DNA of 64,000 nt, from assembly GCF_003334385.1 (NCBI RefSeq), contig NZ_QOWN01000016.1; one strand, given 5' to 3'. This document shows positions 2,341 to 31,082 of the stretch, one piece after another (position 1 is the first letter of the stretch; each line of letters opens with the position of its first letter). Made by a program: the position numbers and the translations under genes. The notes under the pieces were generated by a model. It ran no database searches and was not told the DNA's origin. It saw only the letters and a program-made list of their open reading frames with translations. The stretch is from Escherichia coli. Its GTDB lineage: Bacteria > Pseudomonadota > Gammaproteobacteria > Enterobacterales > Enterobacteriaceae.

Positions 2341-3273
2341 GTGAAAACACTAATAAGAAAATTCTCCCGTACGGCCATCACGGTCGTATTAGTCATTCTG
2401 GCCTTCATCGCAATTTTTAATGCCTGGGTCTATTACACCGAATCCCCCTGGACGCGTGACGCGCGCTTTAGCGCTGACGTCGTTGCGATCGCGCCGGACG
2501 TTTCTGGACTCATTACCCAGGTGAATGTTCATGATAACCAGCTGGTGAAAAAAGGACAGATACTGTTCACCATCGACCAGCCGCGCTATCAAAAGGCGCT
2601 TGAGGAAGCGCAAGCCGATGTTGCTTATTATCAGGTACTGGCACAGGAGAAACGCCAGGAGGCCGGACGTCGTAACCGTCTCGGTGTGCAGGCGATGTCT
2701 CGCGAAGAGATCGACCAGGCCAACAACGTACTACAAACGGTTCTGCATCAGTTAGCGAAAGCGCAGGCGACCCGCGATCTGGCAAAACTGGATCTTGAAC
2801 GCACGGTGATCCGCGCGCCAGCAGATGGCTGGGTGACCAACCTCAACGTCTATACCGGTGAGTTTATTACTCGAGGATCAACGGCGGTTGCGCTGGTGAA
2901 ACAGAACTCCTTCTATGTACTGGCCTATATGGAAGAAACTAAGCTGGAAGGGGTGCGTCCGGGGTATCGTGCAGAGATCACGCCGCTTGGCAGTAACAAA
3001 GTGCTGAAAGGGACTGTTGATAGTGTTGCCGCAGGGGTCACCAACGCCAGCAGCACGCGTGACGACAAAGGGATGGCGACTATAGACTCTAACCTTGAAT
3101 GGGTGCGTCTTGCGCAACGTGTTCCGGTTCGTATTCGTCTCGACAACCAGCAAGAGAACATCTGGCCTGCGGGCACCACTGCTACAGTGGTGGTCACTGG
3201 CAAACAAGATCGCGACGAAAGCCAGGATTCGTTCTTCCGTAAAATGGCCCATCGCCTGCGTGAGTTTGGTTAA
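2341..3273 (+). CDS. aaeA: p-Hydroxybenzoate efflux pump, membrane-fusion subunit AaeA
   Basis: 310 aa with an N-terminal transmembrane segment; GTG start at 2341; recognised as AaeA. Confidence 0.9.
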
Positions 3274-3278
3274 TCACG

Positions 3279-5246
3279 ATGGGTATTTTCTCCATTGCTA
3301 ACCAACATATTCGCTTTGCGGTAAAACTGGCGACCGCCATTGTACTGGCGCTGTTTGTTGGCTTTCACTTCCAGCTGGAAACGCCACGCTGGGCGGTACT
3401 GACAGCGGCGATTGTTGCCGCCGGTCCGGCCTTTGCTGCGGGAGGTGAACCGTATTCTGGCGCTATTCGCTATCGTGGCTTTTTGCGCATCATCGGCACA
3501 TTTATTGGCTGTATTGCCGGACTGGTGATCATCATTGCGATGATCCGCGCACCATTATTGATGATTCTGGTGTGCTGTATCTGGGCCGGTTTTTGTACCT
3601 GGATATCCTCGCTGGTACGAATAGAAAACTCGTATGCGTGGGGGCTGGCCGGTTATACCGCGCTGATCATTGTGATCACCATTCAGCCGGAACCATTGCT
3701 TACGCCGCAGTTTGCCGTCGAACGTTGTAGCGAGATCGTTATCGGTATTGTGTGTGCGATTATGGCGGATTTGCTCTTTTCTCCGCGATCGATCAAACAA
3801 GAAGTGGATCGAGAGCTGGAAAGTTTGCTGGTCGCGCAATATCAATTAATGCAACTCTGTATCAAGCATGGCGATGGTGAAGTTGTCGATAAAGCCTGGG
3901 GCGACCTGGTGCGACGCACCACGGCGCTACAAGGCATGCGCAGCAACCTGAATATGGAATCTTCCCGCTGGGCGCGGGCCAATCGACGTTTAAAAGCGAT
4001 CAATACGCTATCGCTGACGCTGATTACCCAATCCTGCGAAACTTATCTTATTCAGAATACGCGCCCGGAATTGATCACTGATACTTTCCGCGAATTTTTT
4101 GACACGCCGGTAGAAACCGCGCAGGACGTCCACAAGCAGCTCAAACGCCTGCGGAGAGTTATCGCCTGGACCGGGGAACGGGAAACGCCTGTCACCATTT
4201 ATAGCTGGGTCGCGGCGGCAACGCGTTATCAGCTTCTCAAGCGCGGCGTTATCAGTAACACAAAAATCAACGCCACCGAAGAAGAGATCCTGCAAGGCGA
4301 ACCGGAAGTAAAAGTAGAGTCAGCCGAACGTCATCATGCAATGGTTAACTTCTGGCGAACCACACTTTCCTGCATTCTGGGCACGCTTTTCTGGCTGTGG
4401 ACGGGCTGGACTTCCGGCAGTGGTGCAATGGTGATGATTGCGGTAGTGACGTCACTGGCAATGCGTTTGCCGAATCCACGCATGGTGGCGATCGACTTTA
4501 TCTACGGGACGCTGGCCGCGCTGCCGTTAGGGCTGCTCTACTTTTTGGTGATTATCCCTAATACCCAACAGAGCATGTTGCTGCTGTGCATTAGCCTGGC
4601 AGTGCTGGGATTCTTCCTCGGTATAGAAGTACAGAAACGGCGACTGGGCTCGATGGGGGCACTGGCCAGCACCATAAATATTATCGTGCTGGATAACCCG
4701 ATGACTTTCCATTTCAGTCAGTTTCTCGACAGCGCATTAGGGCAAATCGTCGGCTGTGTGCTCGCGTTCACCGTTATTTTGCTGGTGCGGGATAAATCGC
4801 GCGACAGGACCGGACGTGTACTGCTTAATCAGTTTGTTTCTGCCGCTGTTTCCGCGATGACTACCAATGTGGCACGTCGTAAAGAGAACCACCTCCCGGC
4901 ACTTTATCAGCAGCTGTTTTTGCTGATGAATAAGTTCCCAGGGGATTTGCCGAAATTTCGCCTGGCGCTGACGATGATTATCGCGCACCAGCGCCTGCGT
5001 GATGCACCGATCCCGGTTAACGAGGATTTATCGGCGTTTCACCGACAAATGCGCCGCACAGCAGACCATGTGATATCTGCCCGTAGCGATGATAAACGTC
5101 GTCGGTACTTTGGCCAGTTGCTGGAAGAACTGGAAATCTACCAGGAAAAGCTACGCATCTGGCAAGCGCCACCGCAGGTGACGGAACCGGTAAATCGGCT
5201 GGCGGGGATGCTCCATAAGTATCAACATGCGTTGACCGATAGTTAA
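3279..5246 (+). CDS. aaeB: p-Hydroxybenzoate efflux pump subunit AaeB
   Basis: 655 aa multi-pass membrane protein 5 bp downstream of aaeA; recognised as AaeB. Confidence 0.9.
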
Positions 5247-5250
5247 GTCA

Positions 5251-5278
5251 AAACCGACGCCAAAAGCGTCGGTTTTTT
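5251..5278 (+). terminator. Intrinsic terminator after aaeB
   Basis: Hairpin ACCGACGC-caaaa-GCGTCGGT followed by a T-run, immediately after the aaeB stop. Confidence 0.75.
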
Positions 5279-5337
5279 CATGGCTATACTTAGCGATGCA
5301 CGGCAGAACTCGCCGCGAAACGTGACGGTGGCAACAG

Positions 5338-5610
5338 ATGAATATTTATACCTTTGATTTTGATGAGATTGAGAGTCAGGAGGATTTTTATCGTGACTTT
5401 AGCCAAACCTTTGGTCTGGCGAAAGATAAGGTACGCGATCTCGACTCACTATGGGATGTGTTAATGAACGATGTCCTGCCGCTACCACTTGAGATTGAAT
5501 TTGTTCATCTGGGAGAGAAAACGCGTCGCCGTTTTGGCGCGTTAATATTGCTGTTTGATGAGGCAGAGGAAGAGCTGGAAGGGCATTTGCGTTTTAATGT
5601 TCGTCATTAG
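5338..5610 (+). CDS. yhcO: Barstar-like small protein YhcO
   Basis: 90 aa acidic ORF; recognised as YhcO; the barstar-like assignment is from memory of the family. Confidence 0.75.
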
Positions 5611-5613
5611 CGC

Positions 5614-5638
5614 AAAAAAAAGCCCCCGAACCGGGGGC
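5614..5638 (-). terminator. Intrinsic terminator for yhcN (minus strand)
   Basis: Hairpin GCCCCCG-aa-CCGGGGGC with an 8 nt A-run on the plus strand, which is a U-run after the stem on the minus strand. Confidence 0.65.
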
Positions 5639-5665
5639 AATATCGTCGGACAAGACGATGAGGGT

Positions 5666-5929
5666 TTATTTGTACAGTTCAGCCGTAGCGTGCCAGGTGT
5701 CACCGCTACGAGCTTCAGTAATCTGGTAGGCCGTTGCGCCTTTCTCTTCCGCTTTTTTGTTCAGCATTTCACGCATATCCATTGGCGAAGACGCCACACC
5801 ACTTACGGATACGGTCCCGATTGCTTCACGATTTTGTGCTTGTGCAGCATCAATGGAGTCGGCAGCGAATGCACCGAAAGAGAGAACAGAAAGTACGCTT
5901 AATGCAGCAACAGTGGTTTTGATTTTCAT
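5666..5929 (-). CDS. yhcN: Periplasmic stress-induced protein YhcN (YdgH/BhsA/McbA-like family)
   Basis: 87 aa from the internal Met (MKIKTTVAALSVLS...) with a signal peptide; the track ORF is N-terminally over-extended. Confidence 0.8.
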   Translation of the reverse strand: MKIKTTVAALSVLSVLSFGAFAADSIDAAQAQNREAIGTVSVSGVASSPMDMREMLNKKAEEKGATAYQITEARSGDTWHATAELYK

Positions 5930-6293
5930 GATTTTTACCTCGACATAATCTTTTAGCTGGGCCTTTGTTTCGTGACCCATATCACAAAATCAAGTATACA
6001 CTAATTATTGAGCTAATTAATACCGCGCTAACTGTTTCAGTTGATACTAAGTGTTAAAAATGTGAATTTTAATAACAAAAAAGAATTAAAAATACGGTTA
6101 TTTATCGTTAATTCTAGTTTTTTCAATTAGATAATGAATTTTGCATAATGTGCTTTTTTTACCTTATGTATTCATTGTGTGAATGACATGTCGCAGTAAA
6201 ACGCACTATTCGTTAAATTAATCGCAGGGGAAAGCAGGGGGTTGAGAGGGATAAGCAACATTTTCCCCGCCGTCAGAAACGACGGGGCAGAGA

Positions 6294-8199: not shown

Positions 8200-9267
8200 T
8201 TAATTGGTTGCCGGATATTCCTGAATGGTGACCTGCAGCGTTAACTGCTTATCATCACGCATCACTACTACAGGGATCACCGAACCAGGGCGAATTTCCG
8301 CCACCTGATCCATCGTCTCCAGAGCAGAGATGGCCGGTTTGTTATCCACCGAAATAATCAGATCGTTGACCTGAATACCCGCATTCGCCGCCGGGCCGTC
8401 AGGTGACACTTCATTAACCACGATCCCTTGCAGTTGATCTATACCACCGCCCTGCGCGTGCAGTGGTGCGATCTCACGTCCGCCGATACCAATGTAGCCG
8501 CGGATCACGCGACCATCGCGGATCAGCTTATCCATAATTTTGGTTGCTAACTGGAAAGGAATCGCAAAGCCGATACCTTCCGGCGTTTCGCCATCGTTAC
8601 TCTTATCAAACGACAGCGTATTAATGCCCATCAGTTCGCCCAGCGAGTTCACCAGCGCGCCGCCAGAGTTACCGTGGTTAATGGAAGCATCGGTTTGGAG
8701 GAAGTTTTGCCGCCCGGTCGGGTTCAGACCGATTCGACCCGTGGCACTAATAATCCCCTGGGTAATGGTCTGCCCGAGGTTGTACGGGTTACCGATCGCC
8801 AGTACTACGTCGCCAATGTGCGGTACGCGACGTGCATTAATTGGAATGGTAGGTAAACCGCCAGTGGCATTAATTTTAAGTACCGCCAGATCGGTTAGAG
8901 AGTCAGATCCCACCAGCAATGCTTCAAATACACGTCCATCCTGTAAGGCGACGATGATCTGATCGGCGTCGTTGATGACGTGTTTATTGGTGATGATATA
9001 ACCGTGTTGATCCATGATTACACCGGATCCCAGGGTGCGGATCTCAAGCTGGTTGTGAGAGTTGGTGTTCAAACCACGGTTGTAAACGTTAACCACCGCT
9101 GGCGCGGCGCGGCGAACCGCCAGATTATAGCTGGCAGGCGTCTCATCGGTACTGTCAAATTGCGGAGTGGAAAGCGGGTTAAGGCTGCGCAGCGAAGGCA
9201 TGGCAACCAGCAGAATAGCGCCGACAATTAATCCAATCGCAACGGAACGTAAGAGCTTCACAAACAT
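8200..9267 (-). CDS. degS: Inner-membrane serine endoprotease DegS
   Basis: 355 aa with an N-terminal transmembrane anchor, trypsin-like domain and one PDZ domain; recognised as DegS. Confidence 0.95.
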   Translation of the reverse strand: MFVKLLRSVAIGLIVGAILLVAMPSLRSLNPLSTPQFDSTDETPASYNLAVRRAAPAVVNVYNRGLNTNSHNQLEIRTLGSGVIMDQHGYIITNKHVINDADQIIVALQDGRVFEALLVGSDSLTDLAVLKINATGGLPTIPINARRVPHIGDVVLAIGNPYNLGQTITQGIISATGRIGLNPTGRQNFLQTDASINHGNSGGALVNSLGELMGINTLSFDKSNDGETPEGIGFAIPFQLATKIMDKLIRDGRVIRGYIGIGGREIAPLHAQGGGIDQLQGIVVNEVSPDGPAANAGIQVNDLIISVDNKPAISALETMDQVAEIRPGSVIPVVVMRDDKQLTLQVTIQEYPATN

Positions 9268-9356
9268 GATGGAGGCGTCATTAAAAAAGGGAACGGCAGC
9301 AGCATACCACGAGTTAACCGGACATCACACGTAAGCCTGATGCCCGGTTTACGACA

Positions 9357-10724
9357 TTAACGCATCAGCAGATAGATGCTTTCATTGCCGCGTACAATTT
9401 GCAGGGCGATGATGGCCGGTTTTGCCGCCAGCACTTTACGCATTTCAGCAATCGAGTTCACCCGATCGCGGTTGACGCCAATGATCACATCGTCTTTTTG
9501 CAAGCCAGCCTGAGCAGCTGGGCTTCCTTTGACAACTTCATCGATTTTAATACCTTTGCCGCCATCTTTTAGCTGACCATCGCTCAACGTTGCACCTTCC
9601 AGCGCTGGCGTGATCATTTCAGCGCTGGCCGACGAAGAGGTGCTGGTATCGAGCGTCACTTCTACTTCCAGTGGTTTGCCGTTACGCAGCAGGCCAAGCT
9701 TCACTTTCGTGCCCGGCTCGGTGGTCGCGATACGAGAGCGCAACTCAGCAAAGCTATTCAGCGGTTTGCCGTTGAGGCTGGTAATAATATCGCCCGCTTT
9801 GACGCCCGCTTTTGCCGAGCCAGAACCTGGCAACACTTCGCTGACAAACGCGCCACGCTGCACGTCAAGGTTGAAGGCTTTGGCGATATCGGCACTCATC
9901 TCGGTGCCTTTGATGCCTAACAAACCGCGTTTGATTTCACCAAAGTCGATAAGCTGCTGCGCCAGTGTTCGCGCCATATTACTGGGGATGGCAAATCCAA
10001 TCCCGACGCTCCCGCCGCCAGGCGCAAGGATTGCAGTGTTGATGCCAATTAACTCACCGTTAAGGTTTAATAGTGCACCGCCGGAGTTACCGCGGTTAAT
10101 GGAAGCATCTGTCTGGATAAAGTTTTCCAGACCTTCAAGATTCAACCCGCTGCGGCCTAATGCGGAAACAATGCCAGAGGTGGCGGTTTGCCCAAGGCCA
10201 AATGGGTTACCGACCGCTACGGCAAAATCACCGACGCGCAATTTATCGGAGTCGGCAATAGCGATTTGCGTTAATTTGCTCGGGTTTTGAATTTGTAACA
10301 GGGCGATATCGCTCTGGTCATCGCTACCAATCAGTTTTGCATCAAACTCGCGCCCATCATTGAGCTGAATACTGATTTTCTGTGCCTGATTAATCACATG
10401 GTTGTTGGTCAGCACATAGCCTTTACTGGCGTTGATGATGACACCGGAGCCTAAACCTTCGAAGGGTTGTGCAGGTTGATCCGGTAAATCATCACCAAAA
10501 AACTTTTTGAATTCTTCCGGGATTTTCTGTCCCTGACTGGCCGTTCCTTCCACCCGTACGCTCACCACTGCCGGAAGCACTTTTTCCAGCATTGGAGCCA
10601 GACTGGGGAGAGGGGCCTGATCGGCAACCTGGCCTGGAATCGACGCGACGGCCTGAAATGACGCCGAGAGAGTTAACCCGACACTTAACGCTAATGCACT
10701 CAACAGCTGGGTTTGTTTTTTCAT
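9357..10724 (-). CDS. degQ: Periplasmic serine endoprotease DegQ
   Basis: 455 aa from MKKQTQLLSALALS (signal peptide) with a protease domain and two PDZ domains; the track ORF is over-extended by 14 codons. Confidence 0.95.
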   Translation of the reverse strand: MKKQTQLLSALALSVGLTLSASFQAVASIPGQVADQAPLPSLAPMLEKVLPAVVSVRVEGTASQGQKIPEEFKKFFGDDLPDQPAQPFEGLGSGVIINASKGYVLTNNHVINQAQKISIQLNDGREFDAKLIGSDDQSDIALLQIQNPSKLTQIAIADSDKLRVGDFAVAVGNPFGLGQTATSGIVSALGRSGLNLEGLENFIQTDASINRGNSGGALLNLNGELIGINTAILAPGGGSVGIGFAIPSNMARTLAQQLIDFGEIKRGLLGIKGTEMSADIAKAFNLDVQRGAFVSEVLPGSGSAKAGVKAGDIITSLNGKPLNSFAELRSRIATTEPGTKVKLGLLRNGKPLEVEVTLDTSTSSSASAEMITPALEGATLSDGQLKDGGKGIKIDEVVKGSPAAQAGLQKDDVIIGVNRDRVNSIAEMRKVLAAKPAIIALQIVRGNESIYLLMR

Positions 10725-20430: not shown

Positions 20431-21116
20431 ATGTCGTTACTTGCACAACTGGATCAAAAAATCGCTGCTAACGGTGGCCTGATTGTCTCCTGCCAGCCGG
20501 TTCCGGACAGCCCGCTCGATAAACCCGAAATCGTCGCCGCCATGGCATTAGCGGCAGAACAGGCGGGCGCGGTTGCCATTCGCATTGAAGGTGTGGCAAA
20601 TCTGCAAGCCACGCGTGCGGTGGTGAGCGTGCCGATTATTGGAATTGTGAAACGCGATCTGGAGGATTCTCCGGTACGCATCACGGCCTATATTGAAGAT
20701 GTTGATGCGCTGGCGCAGGCGGGCGCGGACATTATCGCCATTGACGGCACCGACCGCCCGCGTCCGGTGCCTGTTGAAACGCTGCTGGCACGTATTCACC
20801 ATCACGGTTTACTGGCGATGACCGACTGCTCAACGCCGGAAGACGGCCTGGCATGCCAAAAGCTGGGAGCCGAAATTATTGGCACTACGCTTTCTGGCTA
20901 TACCACGCCTGAAACGCCAGAAGAGCCGGATCTGGCGCTGGTGAAAACGTTGAGCGACGCCGGATGTCGGGTGATTGCCGAAGGGCGTTACAACACGCCT
21001 GCTCAGGCGGCGGATGCGATGCGCCACGGCGCGTGGGCGGTGACGGTCGGTTCTGCAATCACGCGTCTTGAGCACATTTGTCAGTGGTACAACACAGCGA
21101 TGAAAAAGGCGGTGCT

Positions 21117-21120
<4 letters not shown>
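20431..21120 (+). CDS. nanE: N-acetylmannosamine-6-phosphate 2-epimerase
   Basis: 229 aa from [16 protein letters not shown]; recognised as NanE. Confidence 0.93.
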
Positions 21121-22453
<1,333 letters not shown>

Positions 22454-22472
22454 AACTTAGTTCGTTTTAAAG

Positions 22473-22497
22473 ATTCTGCAGACACTGTCTGCAGAAT
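22473..22497. repeat. Palindromic element, CAGAC-N3-GTCTG family, copy 1 (extragenic, between nanQ and yhcG)
   Basis: ATTCTGCAGAC-act-GTCTGCAGAAT with perfect 11 bp arms; lies in the 59 bp gap between the two convergent genes. Confidence 0.8.
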
Positions 22498-22512
22498 TCG
22501 AAACCGCTGAAA

Positions 22513-23640
22513 TTAACGGCGTCTATAGCCTTCCTCTAGCACCGCCTGTGTTCGAACGAGTTCATCTGCGAGTCGTTTCTCATCAGGTAGTTGCATCTTA
22601 TATTCGCTTGCCAGAACGGTGTTAGGCAAACCTGCCAGAGCATAATGCGCTTCTCCGGCTCCTTTCTCTGCACAGAGAACCAGACCGATGGGCGGATTTT
22701 CATCCGGTAGCGTCCAGTGCTCTTTGGCGTAGTTGAGATACATATTCATCTGTCCGGCATCGCTATAGCTGAATTTGCCCACTTTTAGATCGACGATTAG
22801 CAGGCAGCGTAAACGGCGGTGGAAAAACAGCAGATCGACACGAAACCAGTTGTCATCAATGCGTAACCTTCGCTGCCGACCAACAAAGGCAAAATCATCC
22901 CCAAGTTCCAGCATGAAATCCATCAGGTGGTTGATCAGCGCCTCCTCAAAATCGGATTCTGAATATTCATCTTTCAATTCCAGAAATTCGAGCACAAAGG
23001 GATCGCGTATCGCCTGTTGCGGAAGAATATGCGTCTCGGCAGGAGCGTGTTGTTGCAGCATGGCTGATTTGTCATGTGACAGTAGTGTCCGCTCATAAAA
23101 CTGGGTCGCAATTTGCCGCTCTAGCTGGCGAACAGACCAGCCACAGCGGAGCGTCTCTTTTTCATAAAAGCTGCGGGCGTCAGCGTTTTTAACGGAAAGT
23201 AAACGGACGTAGGTGGACCTGGGCAAGGGGAAAGATTTGGCAGACAGCGTCTGCCAAATCTTTGCCGATGGGAATTCTGCAGACGGTGTCTGCGGAATTC
23301 CCAATGGTGTTAATTCGCCAGACATTGTCTGGCGAATTTCAACATGTTGAAAAAAGAGGTAAAAAAGCCTCATTTGGCGTAAGTTTTTTGCAGAGAACCC
23401 ACGCTTATACCTTAGACATAAATCCTTTGATAGTCGCTTGATTAGCTGCGCACCATACGCAGCCCTGGCCTCGCCACCTTGTTCAAATTCGACAATTCGT
23501 CGGCCAATTTCCTGGTACGTCGCGGTCATTAACGCGTTAACGCTACGTACCGTTTCCGTCCGGGCGCTATCGACCAGATGAATAATACCGTCGTGGATTT
23601 GCTGGTAGCCTGCTGTGGTTCCTTCTGAGAGCGATTCCAT
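22513..23640 (-). CDS. yhcG: YhcG, DUF1016-type protein with a predicted PDDEXK nuclease-like C-terminal region; function unknown
   Basis: 375 aa ORF convergent with nanQ; recognised as YhcG; the centre carries three in-frame 39 bp palindromic repeats (23231-23338). Confidence 0.8.
   Translation of the reverse strand: MESLSEGTTAGYQQIHDGIIHLVDSARTETVRSVNALMTATYQEIGRRIVEFEQGGEARAAYGAQLIKRLSKDLCLRYKRGFSAKNLRQMRLFYLFFQHVEIRQTMSGELTPLGIPQTPSAEFPSAKIWQTLSAKSFPLPRSTYVRLLSVKNADARSFYEKETLRCGWSVRQLERQIATQFYERTLLSHDKSAMLQQHAPAETHILPQQAIRDPFVLEFLELKDEYSESDFEEALINHLMDFMLELGDDFAFVGRQRRLRIDDNWFRVDLLFFHRRLRCLLIVDLKVGKFSYSDAGQMNMYLNYAKEHWTLPDENPPIGLVLCAEKGAGEAHYALAGLPNTVLASEYKMQLPDEKRLADELVRTQAVLEEGYRRR
23231..23338. 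repeat. Three tandem palindromic elements of the same family (copies 2-4), 39 bp period, inside the yhcG reading frame
   Basis: AAAGATTTGGCAGAC-agc-GTCTGCCAAATCTTT (perfect 15 bp arms), GGGAATTCTGCAGAC-ggt-GTCTGCGGAATTCCC (one mismatch), AATTCGCCAGAC-att-GTCTGGCGAATT (perfect 12 bp arms); centres 39 bp apart; the minus strand translates as ...RQTMSGELTPLGIPQTPSAEFPSAKIWQTLSAKSFP... within YhcG. Confidence 0.85.
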
Positions 23641-23824
23641 TATCTGTCCCTTTATATGGAGCTAAGTTGAATAATGGAATGAGCTATACTCTGGGGGGTG
23701 AGCACTGAACAATTAAGAACAGCGTATTACATTTACTTTCCCCAAGATATGCGAAGAGCTTTCCTGAAACATTAACCGATCGTATAAAACGAATGCCTGA
23801 TAGTACTCCTGTCCGGCATTGTTA

Positions 23825-24541
23825 TCACAAGTAGACTACGCTTATCACAGCTTTCCCATCAAGTTCGATTTTTTCTGAACCGCCTAAATCATTCGCGATA
23901 GATGCGCTCACCTGAAGCGGTATAATGGCGTTCGTTACAGGAGTTGGGGTTGTTTCACCTGGTTTTACAAAGGTGTAATAATAGCTTTGATCGACTGCAA
24001 GCGGATAAGCGGTGAGCGTTTGCCATGCTCTTTTTTGCCCTGTTATGACGGCATCTGCACCTGCTATTGATACAGCTAACGTCTGGCTACCATTGCTGGC
24101 ACTAATGTTGTTGCTATCAATTAACACGGCATAACTACCGATATTTTTATTATCTTTTGTTTTCCCTAAGCCGAATAAGCGCGTTGTCTGGCTAATATAA
24201 CCTCCGCCATTTAAGGTATATTTTACACCACTCTGACCCCCACTATCTTTTCCGGTGGTCATACTATCCATTCGTGTATCACGAGCGGTAATCGCAATGC
24301 TGGTAGCGGATTCGCAAGTTATAGTCATATTAATATTACGTGTTCCAATCTGTGTGTAGTGCTGCGTTGAAAGTCTATTGACTGAATGACTACCGAAGTT
24401 AACAACTCCGCCGTTGCTTAGTATTGGAGTACAAGCTGCAGCTTCCAGAGTCACCTTAACGTCAATTGATACTCTATCAGCGGCTTGCGCTGACATGGCA
24501 AAAAAGGCACTTCCGGCAATCAGTAATTTTACATTGTTCAT
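23825..24541 (-). CDS. yhcF: Secreted fimbrial-like protein YhcF (DUF1120 type)
   Basis: 238 aa with signal peptide MNNVKLLIAGSAFFAMSAQA; paralogous pattern to GltF (GxCTP...ITC); last gene of the chaperone-usher operon. Confidence 0.8.
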   Translation of the reverse strand: MNNVKLLIAGSAFFAMSAQAADRVSIDVKVTLEAAACTPILSNGGVVNFGSHSVNRLSTQHYTQIGTRNINMTITCESATSIAITARDTRMDSMTTGKDSGGQSGVKYTLNGGGYISQTTRLFGLGKTKDNKNIGSYAVLIDSNNISASNGSQTLAVSIAGADAVITGQKRAWQTLTAYPLAVDQSYYYTFVKPGETTPTPVTNAIIPLQVSASIANDLGGSEKIELDGKAVISVVYL

Positions 24542-25089
24542 TTTGCCTCCACCAGGACCGTCAGATTGCCTGTAATATCTGTCATGTCGGTTAGTTCCCC
24601 TTCATCCTTAAAAGCTGGAGCCATTGTCAGTGTGAGGCTAACGCTTTTACCGCTATCAATTACCACTTCTTGACCATTTTGCATAAACACCAGCCAATTA
24701 TTGGGGGAAGTACTAATTGATGCTGTTCCTGTGCTGCCCGGATTGTCATTTTTGCCACTGGCTAACGCCAGGTCGAGATTGTTACTACCTGAAAATGCAT
24801 CGCTGGCGATCAGATTTAATGAACCATTCGGGCCAAATCCAAATCCGTTGTTGGAAATATTAGCGGTATTCAACTGAACACGAATATGAGCGTCCTGATC
24901 GCATTGCATTACCAGCGTGATTGTTCTGTCTGCTAATTGTGTTGTTTTACCCCGGTCAACTTGGCGCATGGCAGCACTTCGTTTGCCATAGTCGATATTT
25001 TGTATGCTACTGGAGATATTACACTCTGCCTGAGCGGCCATGGCGAAGTTCAGCAGCAGGCATCCTGTTATTATCCGTTTCATTGGCAC
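24538..25089 (-). CDS. yhcE: Secreted fimbrial-like protein YhcE (DUF1120 type), apparently intact
   Basis: 183 aa with a signal peptide; start overlaps the yhcD stop by 10 nt. Confidence 0.75.
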   Translation of the reverse strand: MPMKRIITGCLLLNFAMAAQAECNISSSIQNIDYGKRSAAMRQVDRGKTTQLADRTITLVMQCDQDAHIRVQLNTANISNNGFGFGPNGSLNLIASDAFSGSNNLDLALASGKNDNPGSTGTASISTSPNNWLVFMQNGQEVVIDSGKSVSLTLTMAPAFKDEGELTDMTDITGNLTVLVEAK

Positions 25090-27461
25090 TCTCCTGTTGC
25101 TGTCTCATAGAACACATCTTTTGGTGCATCTTCTGGGAATGTAAGGTGAATACGGCATGATTGCTGCTCATCTTTTATATCTAGCACCATGTCCGGTTTG
25201 ATGTTATTGAGGAATACAACACCGTCATCCACTGATGTTGTCAGATAGTTGCCTTCACTATCTTCAATCGCAACGCCTCTGGGCAGTTTTTTGCCGTCGG
25301 AAAGTGTGATATTGAGTAATGCACGGCGTTGTGTTATCGCACTGAATCCGACTTTCCCTACTGCACCACGGCCTTGTTTGATCATTTTTGTGCCGTTACC
25401 GATATCGACATTTTTTGGCAAGCTGGCGGTATCGATCTCAACTCCTGATGTTCGCCACGACTGGATTGATGGAATGACGGCATTACCCCGAAAATCTGTC
25501 CATACTGGGCCTGCCTGAGATGTAATTCTGACACCTGCAATATTGTTATCCATTTTTGCGATGGCGAAAGTGTCATTGATAGTCCACGGTGAAAAGGTCA
25601 CTCCCTGATCATGTACGGCAATACCACCTGACATCGTACCGTTGTAAGTACGGCTATCACTGCCGCTTGCTCCTGCGGCAAGGCTGACTTGGGTGTAATG
25701 GAGATTGGAACTGATACTGCCGTTCAAGCTCGTTTCACGTTCGTCGTGATCTCGTTCAGCATTCACATAGTAGGACATCTCATCTGAGACGACTCCCATG
25801 ACACCAGTACCATAGTGGGTTTTATGATCGTCATGGCGAGTATACAGTGTGGCGGTGTTTGATCTGCCAAATGGAATACTGATGTTGACGTAGAACAGAT
25901 CACCATCGTCTTCATTATTTTCTGAAGCACTAAGTTGATGCTGCCAGTTGACGGAAACCGTGGCGTGTTTGAACGCTTTGTTCCAGTTAATATTAAGGTT
26001 GCTTGAGTCATTGTCACCGTCGTAACTATATGTTTTATAGCCACTGATGTTGAAACCACCCAGAATGGAGTTAGACCAGTTTAAACCAAGCGCATAAGTG
26101 CTTTTAGTCGGATCGGTATAATCATCATCAATCGCTTCAGACAGTTCGCGATAATGGCGATCAGATCGAGTGAGGCTGGTTGTTAGCCCAAGTGAAAATG
26201 GGAGATTGTAGTTCGCGTCAAGACGATATTTCTGTCCTTGCAGTGAGTCTTTCGTATCCTGCGATGTACTAATTTGGCTGCTCACTGTTAAATCGGGCAG
26301 GGGAACCAGACTCGACCGGATTGATGCCGCCTGATAATTTTCTGCTACGATAACGCCGCCGTTCATTGCACTCCAGCGTGTCAGATTCCATCCGCTCGAT
26401 GCACTAATTACCCAAGGTGATTCGTCATAGTCATCGTCTACCCGCCCTATCGCGAAGCGATAACCCTGGAAGCTTTCTACATGCTGATTAAACAGGGTGG
26501 AGGGAACAATATAGTTGTGCGAACTACCGTCTGTTTCGACAACGGTGACATTAAGATCACTATTACCATTGCGAACAGGTACATCAGGGATAGTGAATGC
26601 GCCCGCAGGAACCAGAATGGAATGAATTAAAACTCCTTGTTGACGAATCTCGACACGAGCCTGAGAGGTGTTGGCTATACCAGTAACTTGCACACCACTG
26701 CCGCTGGTTTGCAATGCGTTGTCCGGTGCGATTTCGATACCGTAAATACTGGCTCCTTCCAACACGCTATTATTGAGGTTAACTTCACCTGCTCGCATGA
26801 GTGTTTTAAGATCTGTAAAGGTACGTTGAAGGTAGGTTGACGAGTTCTGGTTACTGAATGTGCCATTTGTTTGTGTAAGGAACTGATGGCTGCGTAACAT
26901 CCAGTCATTAATATTAATCCCGCCTTCAAGTGCAGCCTGGGAGTAGTCCGAACTCCCATTAGAAAATTCTGCACGGCTGCTCATCAGAGAGTAGTTTAGC
27001 AGCGCAGCTGTTCCACCAGTTGCTGCGTTTGTGAGATCCAACCCTATGGGAATGATCGCCTGTGGTGAAACGATAATATCTAACGCTTCCTGGTTAGGTA
27101 ATGGTGTGATTGTGGTACCCGGGTAGGACAATATATAGTCGTAACAGCCATTTTTTTCTTCAGAAGGAATTTTTAAACCGGCTTGTTGCAGAAATGCCTG
27201 ATCAAGACAAATGTCGCCATTTTCATCAAAGCGCGTAGCAATGTTGCCTTTTTTTTCGCCATTTACTGATACTATCAGTGAATATTCACCTGGCAAAAAA
27301 CGGGCTGAACGGGAAAAATAATGCGATATATTAGGATCTACACCTAGTGATTTTAATGTTTCCCGATCAAAATCAACAGCGGCAATCTCTATACCATCTG
27401 CATTGGCTGGGGGAGAAAAGGCAAAACCAATGGTGTAGGCCAGTAACGTTTTTTTTAACAT
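25080..27461 (-). CDS. yhcD: Outer-membrane fimbrial usher
   Basis: About 793 aa from MLKKTLLAYTIG (track ORF 799 aa); usher-like beta-barrel sequence with a C-terminal Cys pair. Confidence 0.88.
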   Translation of the reverse strand: MLKKTLLAYTIGFAFSPPANADGIEIAAVDFDRETLKSLGVDPNISHYFSRSARFLPGEYSLIVSVNGEKKGNIATRFDENGDICLDQAFLQQAGLKIPSEEKNGCYDYILSYPGTTITPLPNQEALDIIVSPQAIIPIGLDLTNAATGGTAALLNYSLMSSRAEFSNGSSDYSQAALEGGININDWMLRSHQFLTQTNGTFSNQNSSTYLQRTFTDLKTLMRAGEVNLNNSVLEGASIYGIEIAPDNALQTSGSGVQVTGIANTSQARVEIRQQGVLIHSILVPAGAFTIPDVPVRNGNSDLNVTVVETDGSSHNYIVPSTLFNQHVESFQGYRFAIGRVDDDYDESPWVISASSGWNLTRWSAMNGGVIVAENYQAASIRSSLVPLPDLTVSSQISTSQDTKDSLQGQKYRLDANYNLPFSLGLTTSLTRSDRHYRELSEAIDDDYTDPTKSTYALGLNWSNSILGGFNISGYKTYSYDGDNDSSNLNINWNKAFKHATVSVNWQHQLSASENNEDDGDLFYVNISIPFGRSNTATLYTRHDDHKTHYGTGVMGVVSDEMSYYVNAERDHDERETSLNGSISSNLHYTQVSLAAGASGSDSRTYNGTMSGGIAVHDQGVTFSPWTINDTFAIAKMDNNIAGVRITSQAGPVWTDFRGNAVIPSIQSWRTSGVEIDTASLPKNVDIGNGTKMIKQGRGAVGKVGFSAITQRRALLNITLSDGKKLPRGVAIEDSEGNYLTTSVDDGVVFLNNIKPDMVLDIKDEQQSCRIHLTFPEDAPKDVFYETATGECQ

Positions 27462-27481
27462 CCTTGTCGCTCCAGGCAAAG

Positions 27482-28156
27482 TTATTTTAAGTCAGTGACA
27501 TATTTATTACCGCGATAACCATATCGGCTGGCTGGGTAAAACTCGACTTTTGTATCCGTAGCGTTTGTTAATGCAGTAGTTGTACTGGTGTGTGGTAGAA
27601 AATAGGTCTTATTTATAGCCCCCGTTTTTCCTGAAGGGAGCGTTTTAAATTGTAAGGTCATACGAACGACATAATTACTGGGGTTGCTAATCTCAATTTG
27701 GTCGCCATTTTTACGCCATTCCAGGAATTTCCAGGTCTCTCGCTCTTCCGGCAGGGAAGCCGGGTGGATCAGTACAGGTAGATCCTGACGAATTGAAACA
27801 GTAACTCTGCTGCTCTTGTCATCTTTTGGTGGAATACCTTCGAACGTTACGCGTTTCAGCTCTTCTGATTGCAGAGGAACAGTCGCCTGAAGTAAAAATC
27901 GAACCTGTTGTACTTGACCGGCTTCAACACGAATAACGGGCTGAGTCGGGATTAAACGAATTGATTTATTGCTTTCAGGCAAATCAACAATGGTGGTGTA
28001 AAGCAATGAAGGATGATCATCTGTATTCTTAATATTAATACTAGCTTCACCACGCTTTTCATCAACCAGCAATACTGATGTTTCAGGAACCATCCCTGTG
28101 GCTAAGGTATTCATTGATGTTGTTATAAATACAGTGAATGTAATGTGTCTGAGCAT
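27482..28156 (-). CDS. yhcA: Periplasmic fimbrial chaperone (PapD-like)
   Basis: 224 aa with a signal peptide; 2 bp upstream of the usher gene. Confidence 0.88.
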   Translation of the reverse strand: MLRHITFTVFITTSMNTLATGMVPETSVLLVDEKRGEASINIKNTDDHPSLLYTTIVDLPESNKSIRLIPTQPVIRVEAGQVQQVRFLLQATVPLQSEELKRVTFEGIPPKDDKSSRVTVSIRQDLPVLIHPASLPEERETWKFLEWRKNGDQIEISNPSNYVVRMTLQFKTLPSGKTGAINKTYFLPHTSTTTALTNATDTKVEFYPASRYGYRGNKYVTDLK

Positions 28157-28327
28157 TTAAATTAAAACTCCTGTAATAATGATAAATAACGCAGAAACAT
28201 ATTGTTAATATATGTTATGCACTGTTTGCGATGAGATTGATTAAGACAGACCATGTCATAGGGCATAATCTGTCCGAGTTATAGCTAACTGGTTAATGCG
28301 TAAAAATAAAAACTGTATTACAAGTTC

Positions 28328-29092
28328 TTATAAATACTGAACGCTGATAGTGACGTTACCATCCAGTTTGATCGTTTCATCAGAACCAAGAATAGTATTG
28401 TCATTTACCGCAGCATCAATCAGTAACGGGAAGGTGACCGCTGTAATGGCAACAGGTGTCAGTTCCCCTGTTTTTGCAACAGAATAACCGCGCTCGATTG
28501 CTGAGCAACTTGTCAGCGAGCAGAATGCGCCATTAGATGAGGCTTTCCATGTGGGGGTCGCTGCTGACCAGTGGTCAGTTTGAATCAGGTCGACAGGAAT
28601 TTCACCTGTATCGTCCGCCGCGTGAATCCCACCATTAGACCTGTCAATACCAATGGATGCAGCGCCAATTTTTTGTCCATTAGGCGCAGAACCTAAACCA
28701 AAGGCGTTTTTCGTTCCCTTCATATCTACGAGAGTATCATAAGCTTTTTCAATATAGGATGTGTCGTTTAACGCTACAATGGTCGACTGACGGTTATCCT
28801 TGGAGGTTACAGCAATTAGCGTTGGTGCTGTGCAGGTTATATTTAATGTGCTGTTTTTGCGGCCCAGTTGAACCAGTTTATTACTTTTACCGGTCGGATT
28901 CAGCGCACTGTTATGATGTTTCCCATAGTCAACAATGCCGCCGCCCGTAACAACTGGGGTACATGCACCAGGGGTATACTCGCCGATGATAGTTAATTCT
29001 GTATCAGTTGAATCTGTTGCCATGGCACTGAATGCTGCAACAGAAAGTGCTGCACAAATAGCAGCTGTTGTGAGGTTCTTTTTGAAAAACAT
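28328..29092 (-). CDS. gltF: Secreted fimbrial-like protein GltF (DUF1120 type), probable first subunit of the chaperone-usher operon
   Basis: 254 aa with signal peptide MFFKKNLTTAAICAALSVAAFSAMA; paralogous to YhcF. Confidence 0.85.
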   Translation of the reverse strand: MFFKKNLTTAAICAALSVAAFSAMATDSTDTELTIIGEYTPGACTPVVTGGGIVDYGKHHNSALNPTGKSNKLVQLGRKNSTLNITCTAPTLIAVTSKDNRQSTIVALNDTSYIEKAYDTLVDMKGTKNAFGLGSAPNGQKIGAASIGIDRSNGGIHAADDTGEIPVDLIQTDHWSAATPTWKASSNGAFCSLTSCSAIERGYSVAKTGELTPVAITAVTFPLLIDAAVNDNTILGSDETIKLDGNVTISVQYL

Positions 29093-29611
29093 ATGAACAT
29101 ATCCTTAATAACAAATTTATTTTTTAAAATAAAAAGCTGAAGCAGTATATATATCTGTTTGTGAATGTAAATAAATAACTCGTTCAGAAATAGCCAACTT
29201 GCTGGGATGTATTTATTTAATGAATTTTATAGTTACGATCATGTGAATAATAAGGTGCTGGTGAGGTGGTTTGTGGTGATAATTATTCATTACATGAATG
29301 TTTGCGCTGAAAAATAGGAAAATATATAGATAATTAAGGATAATATATTGGTTTTTTATATTCATATTTTGTATATTAATATCGAGACAATTTACATGGA
29401 ATGAAAAGACTGAATAGCTTGCAGAATCGGTATTGTCAGAGGTGTTAACAAGTAATTGAGACGGATTGTAAATGAGAAATTGCTTGATGTGCTTCACTCA
29501 TCAGACTTGGTGAACAAAGCACAATTTATTGAAAATTATCCCTATTATAGGAAAGGTCAAACGCTCATGCCGCATTTGCCAGAAAACAACGCGCACTTCG
29601 TCAGTAATTTG

Positions 29612-29636
29612 ATTCGCCAGACACAGTCTGGCGAAT
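29612..29636. repeat. Palindromic element, CAGAC-N3-GTCTG family, copy 5 (extragenic, just downstream of gltD)
   Basis: ATTCGCCAGAC-aca-GTCTGGCGAAT with perfect 11 bp arms; arms identical to intragenic copy 4. Confidence 0.8.
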
Positions 29637-29651
29637 TCATTGTTACCTCGC

Positions 29652-31082
<1,431 letters not shown>

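Follow-up and report, generated by a model that had tools for sequence, protein, structure and literature searches.

Palindromes of the nanQ–gltD region

The 64-kb stretch of Escherichia coli DNA analysed here (contig NZ_QOWN01000016.1; hereafter, the window) carries, between the core genes nanQ and gltD, the yhcG gene, a block of fimbrial-type open reading frames (ORFs) and five copies of a short palindrome, numbered in the order of their positions (Table 1). Copies 2-4 lie inside yhcG, whereas copies 1 and 5 are extragenic. All five are copies of a palindrome which nearly every member of the yhcG/DUF1016/PDC-S02 gene family, in Bacteria as well as in Archaea, carries at the same position and in the same reading frame, in a stretch encoding a predicted protein linker; we call it the linker palindrome.

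The core CAGAC-N3-GTCTG is matched exactly five times in the window, while shuffled versions of the window gave a mean of 0.02 matches and reached five in none of 100 shuffles. A wider 25-mer, ATTNNNNNGACNNNGTCNNNNNAAT (ATT-N5-GAC-N3-GTC-N5-AAT), likewise has five matches against an expectation of 0; thus, the original prediction of five copies, found nowhere else in the window, was borne out. In a repeat search they formed a single family, spaced by 762, 39, 39 and 6299 nt. The arms are perfect over 11-15 nt, apart from a single mismatch in copy 3, which is C-A on the mRNA strand, i.e. no wobble pair. The perfect palindrome of copy 2, AAAGATTTGGCAGAC AGC GTCTGCCAAATCTTT, spans 23231-23263 (stem of 15), and near-complementarity extends further, giving a repeat with 18-nt arms that are 94% complementary. 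When folded as single-stranded DNA (ssDNA), every copy forms a hairpin whose loop is 3 nt long (single copies have z = -6; for copy 1, dG is -10.9 kcal/mol and z = -6.1), and the triple in-gene array reaches z = -12 to -13 on either strand. Arms ATTCTGCAGAC are common to copies 1 and 3, and copies 4 and 5 have identical arms, ATTCGCCAGAC/GTCTGGCGAAT, in agreement with the twin relations proposed before.

The in-gene copies are exactly 13 codons apart and in frame, encoding IRQTMSGELTPLG, IPQTPSAEFPSAK and IWQTLSAKSFPLP; copy 4 is orthologous to the single unit found in yhcG of E. coli O157, Salmonella and Citrobacter koseri. Copy 1 lies 19 nt past the nanQ stop codon and 15 nt past that of yhcG, with which it is in frame, directly beyond the stop. 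Indeed, in a 391-aa E. coli variant (P0021) the stop is read through into copy 1, giving ...RILQTLSGES.... Copy 5 lies 15 nt past the gltD stop codon. The idea that copies 1 and 5 are remnant pseudogenes was rejected, as no DUF1016-like translation extends beyond the palindrome itself. Copy 1 together with the next 17 nt (22470-22514) is 79% complementary over 42 nt to the third in-gene unit and the inter-unit spacer (23257-23298), so that copy 1 may have originated from a 39-bp unit copied in inverted orientation, although a similarity of this length and degree, taken alone, is not significant. The 3-nt spacer of copy 1 (22484-22486) is ACT in K-12 and AGT in O157 (locus L003, 8185-8187).

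Table 1. Features of the nanQ–gltD region, with positions in the window
Feature	Position	Strand	Match to the 25-mer	Start of CAGAC-N3-GTCTG	Description
nanQ	21989..22453	+			core flanking gene; from the ORF list and the annotation of homologous records
copy 1	22473..22497	none	22473-22497	22479	extragenic palindrome ATTCTGCAGAC ACT GTCTGCAGAAT in the convergent nanQ/yhcG gap
yhcG	22513..23640	-			375-aa ORF holding copies 2-4; DUF1016_N + YhcG_C (PD-(D/E)XK)
copy 2	23228..23266	none	23235-23259	23241	in-gene unit nearest the nuclease-domain side; encodes KIWQTLSAKS
tandem array	23232..23338	-			three 39-bp (13-codon) units with one palindrome each
copy 3	23271..23301	none	23274-23298	23280	middle in-gene unit, GGGAATTCTGCAGAC GGT GTCTGCGGAATTCCC, one mismatch; encodes IPQTPSAEF
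copy 4	23312..23338	none	23313-23337	23319	in-gene unit at the canonical position of the family, AATTCGCCAGAC ATT GTCTGGCGAATT; encodes EIRQTMSGEL
cargo between yhcG and copy 5	23825..29092	-			fimbrial-type ORFs
cargo ORFs	23825-24541, 24538-25089, 25080-27479 (usher-sized), 27482-28156, 28328-29092	-			from the ORF list; taken by us to be yhcF, yhcE, yhcD, yhcA and gltF, names that follow the original prediction and the K-12 gene order
copy 5	29612..29636	none	29612-29636	29618	extragenic palindrome ATTCGCCAGAC ACA GTCTGGCGAAT; arms identical to those of copy 4
gltD	29652..31070	-			core flanking gene; from the ORF list and the annotation of homologous records

The yhcG gene product

YhcG represents a very widespread nuclease family, listed as a candidate defence gene. 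The Pfam domains DUF1016_N (PF17761) and YhcG_C (PF06250) are present on all close YhcG homologues, and the protein was assigned to the PADLOC candidate defence family PDC-S02 with E = 3e-131; no NCBIfam model was found for it, and a PDB sequence search gave chance-level matches only. More than 8,000 homologues were scored among the matches listed, and genes of this family occur on plasmids, on conjugative elements and within type I restriction-modification loci.

The catalytic residues of a PD-(D/E)XK nuclease are present in YhcG: in alignments A2 and A4, E245, D269 and K286 (with L285) show no or almost no variation, and D284 is nearly invariant over the 85 sequences of A4. The E...D...E-x-K motif was assigned after Kosinski et al. 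2005 (PMC1189080), who related the YhcG domain to DUF91/NucS, to YraN-like proteins and to archaeal Holliday-junction resolvases. This kinship makes a structure-specific or interrupted-palindrome-specific nuclease plausible; restriction enzymes are among the fold neighbours of YhcG. An AlphaFold model built on the 85-sequence alignment (mean pLDDT 83) contains a helical N-terminal module (residues 7-96), a helical middle part and a C-terminal alpha/beta nuclease core. A low-confidence coil at residues ~97-135 (pLDDT 47-60) coincides with the repeat encoded by the palindromes (residues ~101-139), with coil over residues 101-130; by this model, the palindrome-encoded stretch is a predicted disordered linker that joins the N-terminal helical module to the remainder of the protein.

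The palindrome as a hallmark of the DUF1016 gene family

In enterobacterial YhcG proteins the repeat unit reads I-x-Q-T-x-S-x-x, and its residue 2 covaries with residues 7 and 8 in the way that a DNA palindrome predicts, e.g. V (GTG) occurs with A-Q (GCA CAA). Orthologues from Enterobacteriaceae have 1-4 units, and their lengths (349-391 aa) vary mainly by unit number.

The same element was found far outside this family of bacteria. Eight distant plasmid-borne DUF1016 genes were fetched by tblastn on plasmids, and in four of them a perfect palindrome, its 12-14-bp arms separated by a 3-nt spacer, was found ~290-305 nt into the gene: GGATTGTGCAGAC ACT GTCTGCACAATCC in Burkholderia, GCAATTGGCCAACA ACC TGTTGGCCAATTGC in Rhodococcus, AATTCTCGTATC ACT GATACGAGAATT in Pseudomonas and ATTTGTGCAGAC AGT GTCTGCACAAAT in Clostridium, the last accompanied by a twin with a 16-bp stem ~30 nt past the stop codon. 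In Fusobacterium, a palindrome with 11-bp arms lies 23 nt upstream of the start codon. The sample was extended by 79 DUF1016 loci from contigs representing one genome per species and many phyla, including Woesearchaeota, Nanoarchaeota and Methanoperedens. Full-length ORFs (88) were mapped on a profile hidden Markov model, and the scan was limited to the window corresponding to M90-Y144 of YhcG (69-290 nt). Perfect palindromes around a 3-nt spacer, having stems of at least 11, 8 and 7, were found there in 33, 47 and 59 of the 88 ORFs, respectively, and archaeal genes (Woesearchaeota, Nanoarchaeota) are among the carriers. Stems of at least 11 are 25-fold denser in DUF1016 genes (0.352/kb) than in their flanks (0.014/kb). 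When mismatches were allowed, 83 of 86 genes had an in-frame 11-3-11 unit with at least 8 of 11 positions paired, and 52 genes had one with at least 10 of 11.

One reading frame, in which the first spacer base is codon position 3, accounts for 124 of 143 units, and the family consensus is 25-31 bp long: ATT-N4-x(G/A)AC, a 3-nt spacer and GT(C/T)x-N4-AAT. The commonest spacers, ACT (38) and AGT (28), are reverse complements of each other and code for Leu or Val, a pattern compatible with spacer flipping or with a simple C/G change. Conservation of a palindrome at synonymous sites, in one frame and at one position, in bacteria and archaea alike, is an unusual constraint on a coding sequence. It indicates that coding sequences can hold conserved DNA-structure signals overlooked by standard annotation of genes and RNAs. 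Our search, confined to open-access literature, found no description of a palindrome in yhcG/DUF1016/PDC-S02 genes.

Constraint at the level of DNA

Arm sequences of the linker palindrome are lineage-specific, while their Watson-Crick complementarity is kept, which places the constraint on DNA. When 79 units were aligned without gaps (A3), pairing was seen in 90.8% of cells, compared with 63.9% after shuffling and 24-43% when the partner arm was slid. Two-sided changes number 205, as opposed to 56 in shuffles, all 11 pairs covary, and the covariation score is 0.62 against 0.14, although these values lean towards pairing, as the units were picked as the best-paired ones per window. Cells of the G-U type amount to only ~9 of 869, and among mismatches on the mRNA strand A-C (62) exceeds G-T (24). 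Both the scarcity of G-U and the excess of A-C over G-T are the opposite of what an mRNA hairpin predicts.

A recoding control, in which synonymous codons were drawn from the usage of each gene itself (200 recodings per gene) and the best unit was selected in an identical way, shares the selection bias of A3 and still separates cleanly. Synonymous recoding decreased pairing from 9.7 to 6.6 of 11 (86 genes); 49 of these genes beat all 200 of their recodings and 78 exceeded their own 95th percentile. Taken together, the covariation, the loss of pairing upon recoding and the near absence of G-U indicate an element acting at the DNA level rather than a feature of the peptide or the RNA. Units residing within one gene differ from each other by 17 two-sided (compensated) against 7 one-sided differences, as exemplified by ATTGTGCAGAC/GTCTGCACAAT and ATTCTCCAGAC/GTCTGGAGAAT in E. 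coli SCU-109. Such compensated differences mean that it is the pairing of arms that is retained, not one sequence, which favours an intrastrand structure (hairpin or cruciform), or copying from arm to arm, over a plain read-out of double-stranded DNA (dsDNA).

The locus in E. coli strains and related bacteria

The locus was matched in 5,415 of 5,426 complete E. coli genomes, most of it being held in only 3,348, and four configurations were found between nanQ and gltD. In the K-12 type, represented by the window, nanQ is followed by copy 1, yhcG with three units, the fimbrial block, copy 5 and gltD. In O157:H7 and SCU-109, nanQ and copy 1 are followed by yhcG, here with one or two units, which is separated from gltD by 183 bp; the fimbrial block and copy 5 are missing. 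Instead of the latter, a GC-rich hairpin, CAGCGCCG...CGGCGCTG, follows gltD in both strains (L003, 9390-9446; L004, 9455-9509); hence the 3' flank of gltD has two unrelated versions in E. coli. In U12A and 2015C-4136CT1 the nanQ-gltD gap is reduced to 67 bp containing exactly one perfect palindrome, ATTCGCCAGAC ACT GTCTGGCGAAT, whose left flank resembles that of copy 1 and whose right flank is that of copy 5. Finally, BS-04 and 23AR1101 have an unrelated segment of ~470 bp, carrying an orphan 101-aa ORF, in place of the 3' two-thirds of yhcG and copy 1; beyond this segment, the sequence is homologous to K-12 again from the outer edge of the 11-nt copy 2 arm onwards. The fimbrial block is absent from O157, SCU-109, U12A and BS-04 and was found in K-12-type strains only; its boundary on the gltD side is copy 5, and no palindrome occurs at its yhcG-side edge, near 23760.

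Thus, the locus repeatedly breaks and rejoins at the palindromes, the junctions of three independent structural variants falling within 4 nt of a palindrome edge, and the loss of yhcG and the fimbrial block leaves one copy behind. In this descriptive sense the element is recombinogenic, as had been suggested, and the palindromes explain a hot spot of structural variation beside the nan and gltBD operons of E. coli. In BLAST searches with copy 5, 1-4 places per genome were found in the 5,426 complete genomes (median 2); 11,118 of the 11,120 places are chromosomal and two are on plasmids, and every inspected place belongs to this locus. Occurrence at many unrelated loci, which would have spoken for a dispersed repeat, was therefore not observed, and that idea was discarded.

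In one Salmonella enterica strain and in C. koseri, yhcG is syntenic (gltD-yhcG-nanQ) and carries one in-gene palindrome, and no extragenic copies are present at the yhcG locus. This synteny makes yhcG ancestral at the site between gltD and nanQ. In-frame amplification turned the one in-gene copy of the ancestor into three 39-bp units in K-12, and two extra copies arose extragenically, past the stop codons of yhcG and gltD; we conclude that the tandem amplification and both extragenic copies are Escherichia-specific derivatives. These findings bear on the proposal that copies 1 and 5 are remnant integration junctions of an acquired island comprising yhcG and the fimbrial genes. One part of it stands, as copies 1 and 5 do bracket the block, and genomes devoid of it keep a single copy at the empty site (U12A, 2015C-4136CT1). 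The inclusion of yhcG in the acquired block is contradicted by its position, with nothing but the in-gene copy, in Salmonella and C. koseri. Nor do the palindromes mark block junctions in general, since O157 and SCU-109 possess yhcG without either the fimbrial block or copy 5, and the edge near 23760 is bare. It follows that the palindromes are not primarily junctions.

The 101-aa ORF (L005, 8230-8535, minus strand), standing in for the nuclease-domain part of yhcG in some strains, is annotated as a transposase, which looks doubtful because it has no match in Pfam or NCBIfam; a degraded homologue is present in L001 (~3230-3700). In E. coli NT1F10 (NZ_CP075462.1, 533661-535938) an IS1 family transposase is inserted within the yhcG region.

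Copies outside the gene

Extragenic palindromes of the family type were detected in ~10 of 80 loci. Most of these twins are found either 50-500 nt upstream (L007, L073, L086, L060, L037, L038) or 29-45 nt downstream of the gene; those shortly past the stop codon include the twin of L013 and copy 1 of E. coli. Compared with the in-gene arm of the same locus, the arms of the twin are identical at 10-11 of 11 positions in five loci and at 8-9 of 11 in two more. A high-GC genome (L037) contains tandem DUF1016 paralogues at 4881-6044 and 9172-10161, whose nuclease domains appear near-identical by eye, as opposed to divergent N-terminal and middle parts and different in-gene palindromes; each paralogue has an extragenic palindrome ~400 nt upstream. 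There are four AT-rich extragenic palindromes at this locus (2372, 4267, 4579 and 8697), and the one upstream of the first gene equals the in-gene palindrome of the second.

When 2.9 million viral contigs were scanned for ATTNNNCAGACNNNGTCTGNNNAAT, 41 matches were obtained; 23 of them lie in DUF1016 genes at the canonical position and 18 outside such genes, some of the latter being fragments of DUF1016 pseudogenes. DUF1016 is rare in phages (15 of 50,697 curated records), and on this ground the idea of a free-standing homing endonuclease in phages was ruled out. Stand-alone, fully symmetric palindromes of the CAGAC type, in the vicinity of which there is no DUF1016 gene, occur in viral contigs at L110 1342, L118 8089, L126 3781, L115 9938-9985, L101 7563 and L103 3424. 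As judged by eye, one of the stand-alone viral palindromes lies between ORFs resembling a prohead protease and a major capsid protein, one follows a terminase-like ORF and one precedes a portal-like ORF; in one viral contig, two abutting palindromes with common AAT/ATT ends are placed 16 nt upstream of a serine recombinase gene.

At another locus, L095, two 11-3-11 ATT...AAT palindromes (4547-4571 and 5813-5837) bracket a RhuM gene (4680-5723, minus strand; Pfam Virulence_RhuM, E = 6e-105), and no DUF1016 ORF is present there. One of them, ATTTAACAGAC aat GTCTGTTAAAT, lies 90 nt upstream of the RhuM start and the other, ATTGCGAAAAT agt ATTTTCGCAAT, 108 nt past the stop; the sequence recurs, reversed, in L117. 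Like DUF1016, RhuM has been reported as an insert in type I restriction-modification loci (PMC9881135).

Possible function of the linker palindrome

Our tentative proposal, which we hold with less than even confidence, is that the palindrome is a hairpin- or cruciform-forming, recombinogenic cis-site of the nuclease encoded by the same gene. The palindrome would act as DNA, through intrastrand pairing, and would be recognised by the NucS-like, structure- or site-specific nuclease. With the site carried inside the gene, protein and site would be inherited together, also upon horizontal transfer. Binding to the palindrome could provide self-control, and in several lineages a twin indeed lies 50-500 nt upstream of the start codon or just past the stop. 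Occasional cutting and repair, or template switching induced by the hairpin, might give rise to tandem amplification, dispersed copies and indels. A putative cognate pair of nuclease and site is suggested by their co-inheritance, by the identical twins at the same locus and by the joint divergence of protein parts and palindrome in L037. The family thereby gains a concrete candidate substrate, a hairpin or cruciform of 25-31 bp; if the palindrome really is the target of the nuclease, this would be a new architecture, in which the target is embedded in the gene of the effector.

Several observations weigh against this proposal. Binding or cutting of the palindrome by YhcG is something that we infer, and the covariation values come from units selected for pairing. 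In ~70 of 80 loci the in-gene copy is the only one, which means that an architecture of two sites or with an operator is not the rule. The K-12 units have three different middle sequences side by side, making it unlikely that one protein reads the whole site in a sequence-specific manner. Among the viral matches outside DUF1016 ORFs, 16 of 18 are symmetric at 10-11 of 11 positions although the N positions of the query were unconstrained. Besides the pseudogene fragments, the 18 matches include some in intergenic regions of phage structural modules and others upstream of a RhuM-family gene or a serine recombinase gene, in some cases without any DUF1016 ORF for several kb around. A perfect palindrome is retained without the gene in yhcG-less E. 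coli, too. Hence, the palindrome can persist without a linked intact nuclease gene. Finally, a purely mutational process, correction of a quasipalindrome by template switching, could preserve arm complementarity in a tolerant linker even if the palindrome had no function.

The most probable of the alternatives, though one that we consider rather unlikely, is a functionless, self-perpetuating palindrome, which would have arisen once in a tolerant disordered linker of the ancestral gene and been kept perfect by template switching between its arms. A change in one arm would be reverted or copied across to the other, and slippage, duplications and deletions in E. coli would follow from the hairpin-prone nature of the DNA. 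Mutation by template switching at quasipalindromes is well established for E. coli. Strictly Watson-Crick arms with hardly any G-U/G-T intermediates are just what arm-to-arm copying predicts, and units of one gene that differ from each other while each remains self-complementary are accounted for equally well, as are a linker that is disordered and variable in length, the persistence of the palindrome in the examined yhcG-less strains and the rearrangement junctions at palindromes. Such a process leaves unexplained, however, why position, frame, the 3-nt spacer, the 11-nt arms and the blocks ATT...(G/A)AC and GT(C/T)...AAT have been kept in different phyla and in archaea, why the density of stems of at least 11 is ~25 times higher in the genes than in their flanks, and why twins occupy operator-like positions in several unrelated lineages. 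Moreover, perfect palindromes are normally counter-selected because they are targets of hairpin nucleases.

Rather less probable is an attachment or integration site, at which a recombinase, or else the nuclease, would insert or excise cassettes such as yhcG, the fimbrial block or other defence-island genes like RhuM, each junction and the empty site retaining one copy. The empty-site copy, with flanks matching the outer flanks of copies 1 and 5, and the position of these two copies around yhcG and the fimbrial block are what this model expects. So are the exchange, in BS-04 and 23AR1101, of the 3' two-thirds of yhcG, which lies between copy 1 and the in-gene units, the Clostridium in-gene copy with its twin past the stop codon, and the bracketed RhuM gene. 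Integrases adjoin DUF1016 in 3 of 8 plasmid loci, and DUF1016 has been reported as enriched next to programmed-inversion loci (PMC9881135). The model is contradicted by the syntenic yhcG genes of Salmonella and C. koseri, which lack flanking copies, by O157-type strains, which have yhcG but not copy 5, by the bare yhcG-side edge of the fimbrial block, by the lack of extragenic copies in ~70 of 80 loci, and by the ORF list of the window, which has no recombinase between the copies. Identities of the N- and C-terminal domains are largely congruent (r = 0.77, with few discordant pairs), which gives no clear sign of swapping at the palindrome, and in L037 the break in identity, as seen by eye, is near residue 210, off the palindrome. 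The combination of a 3-nt spacer with 11-nt arms is unlike the known core sites of tyrosine or serine recombinases.

An operator for a separate dimeric regulator acting in trans, which would loop intragenic to extragenic sites as in lacO1/O2 and galOE/OI, seems improbable. The element has the shape of a dimer operator, its conserved outer ATT/AAT and inner GAC/GTC blocks being about one helical turn apart, and twins occur 16-500 nt upstream of start codons, including those of the RhuM gene and the serine recombinase gene without DUF1016 nearby. On the other hand, no conserved neighbouring regulator was found in the annotated loci, and the site is kept with DUF1016 across bacteria and archaea, for which no single regulator in common would be expected. 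The variable middles stay symmetric even though the units coexist in one genome, which an operator read as dsDNA would not require.

Of equally low probability, in our opinion, is an extension of the proposed nuclease-site pairing, according to which members of the YhcG (PDC-S02) family would be single-gene suicide or alarm modules carrying their own chromosomal target. The linker palindrome would be extruded only under disturbed topology or replication, e.g. during phage infection or in the presence of incoming ssDNA, and would then be cut by the nuclease. A target placed within its own coding sequence would make the system portable to any host by horizontal transfer, and the tandem amplifications, dispersed copies and indels in E. 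coli might be scars of such cuts.

We regard an RNA hairpin as very improbable. It would serve as an element of the yhcG mRNA (pausing, processing or stability) and as a 3'-end stabiliser or terminator after yhcG, nanQ and gltD. Copies 1 and 5 are indeed 15-19 nt past stop codons, the single copy of yhcG-less strains sits between convergent genes, and strong hairpins are predicted on both strands. Nevertheless, a terminator scan of 22300-23900 called none of copies 1-4, of which copies 2-4 are in the middle of the coding sequence, and there is no T-run in the tails of copy 1 (TCGAAACC) or copy 5 (TCATTGTT). No Rfam 15 covariance model matched at E <= 1 in 21000-31000. The scarcity of G-U cells despite 205 double changes, and the prevalence of A-C over G-U-compatible mismatches on the mRNA strand, speak against pairing in RNA, as do copies located upstream of promoters and on either side of the gene.

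Chance, or palindromy as a by-product of the conserved peptide I-x-Q-T-L-S-x-E, can be dismissed on the evidence of window shuffles (expectation 0.02), covariation and synonymous recoding, for although QT[LV]S[AG] is common in the family, the same peptides lose their pairing when recoded, lineages with unlike peptides (RILVSLIREL, AIGQQPVGQL, AIQHAPRVEF) are equally palindromic, and extragenic copies exist.

Comparison with known systems

The element is comparable in several respects to the repetitive extragenic palindromes (REP), their mosaic arrays (BIME) and the REP-associated tyrosine transposase (RAYT) genes, which also combine short hairpin-forming palindromes with a nuclease or transposase gene, vary between lineages together with the gene and are hot spots of rearrangement. 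REP are GC-rich, imperfect, extragenic palindromes with a consensus of their own; they and BIME are intergenic, dispersed in hundreds of copies, and flank the RAYT gene. In contrast, the linker palindrome occurs in 1-5 copies at one locus (in 1-4 places per E. coli genome, as described above), inside a coding sequence and in a fixed frame, its arms are perfect, and the protein is of the PD-(D/E)XK rather than the HUH type. In the window, the perfect ATT...CAGAC-N3-GTCTG...AAT pattern, with three of five copies within a coding sequence, does not agree with REP/BIME sequences either.

In its logic, a palindrome linked to the gene whose product would use it, the element resembles parS within parB/spo0J as well as REP-RAYT; lacO2 and galOI are examples of intragenic operators. 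parS and the operators have a fixed sequence read as dsDNA, with positions that are not contacted being free of symmetry, whereas the middles of the arms of the linker palindrome vary and yet stay complementary. It differs from both REP-RAYT and parS in being translated at a fixed place of a gene, in its family-wide conservation and in its variable but strictly complementary arms. Template-switch hot spots at quasipalindromes of E. coli are comparable in that a process at the DNA level turns imperfect into perfect palindromes there, gives rise to hairpin-related rearrangements and predicts Watson-Crick-only arms; the known hot spots are, however, individual mutational sites and not elements at orthologous positions across domains of life.

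Integron attC sites and the dif sites of Xer-dependent mobile elements (IMEX) likewise bracket cassettes and leave one copy at the empty site, and attC acts as folded ssDNA. However, attC sites are 55-140 bp long and imperfect, have extrahelical bases and need IntI, and dif has an 11-6-11 organisation and a fixed sequence, to which the linker palindrome is unrelated. The latter is organised as 11-3-11 and is perfect, with 11-15-nt arms, a 3-nt spacer and no bulges in the window; it has no integrase between its copies, and most loci lack flanking copies. No integrase-sized ORF was found between or beside the copies in 21500-31000, and intI was not searched for elsewhere in the window. Ends of IS200/IS605-type transposons do not fit, as there is no transposase between copies 1 and 5 and the empty site keeps a full palindrome. 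A CRISPR array does not fit either: there are three units with a period of 39 nt, only 10-14 nt separate the palindromes, and the array is translated within yhcG.

Rickettsia palindromic elements are comparable as palindromic DNA translated in frame and tolerated in a surface or linker region; they are 100-150 bp long and occur in many unrelated genes of one genus, while the linker palindrome (25-39 bp) is tied to one gene family and one position in many phyla. Interrupted palindromes are recognised by PD-(D/E)XK enzymes such as Tth111I (GACN3GTC) and DraIII (CACN3GTG), and two-site enzymes include SfiI and NgoMIV. The inner GAC-N3-GTC core with its 3-nt spacer resembles such sites, and YhcG is itself a PD-(D/E)XK nuclease. 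The linker palindrome differs from restriction sites in that its conserved region extends over 25-31 bp and lies in the gene of the enzyme, and no methyltransferase partner is present in the window.

Other features near the locus

A transporter gene annotated as dcuC lies between sspB and nanR in O157, SCU-109 and 23AR1101 (~935-2299 in L003, L004 and L005) and is absent from U12A (L002, 6571-6679), a further presence/absence polymorphism near the locus. For an antisense/divergent RNA, G0-10703, a 128-bp overlap with the 5' untranslated region of yhcG and induction in stationary phase have been reported (PMC7967276); the corresponding region (~23640-23770 in the window) lies upstream of yhcG, away from the palindromes.

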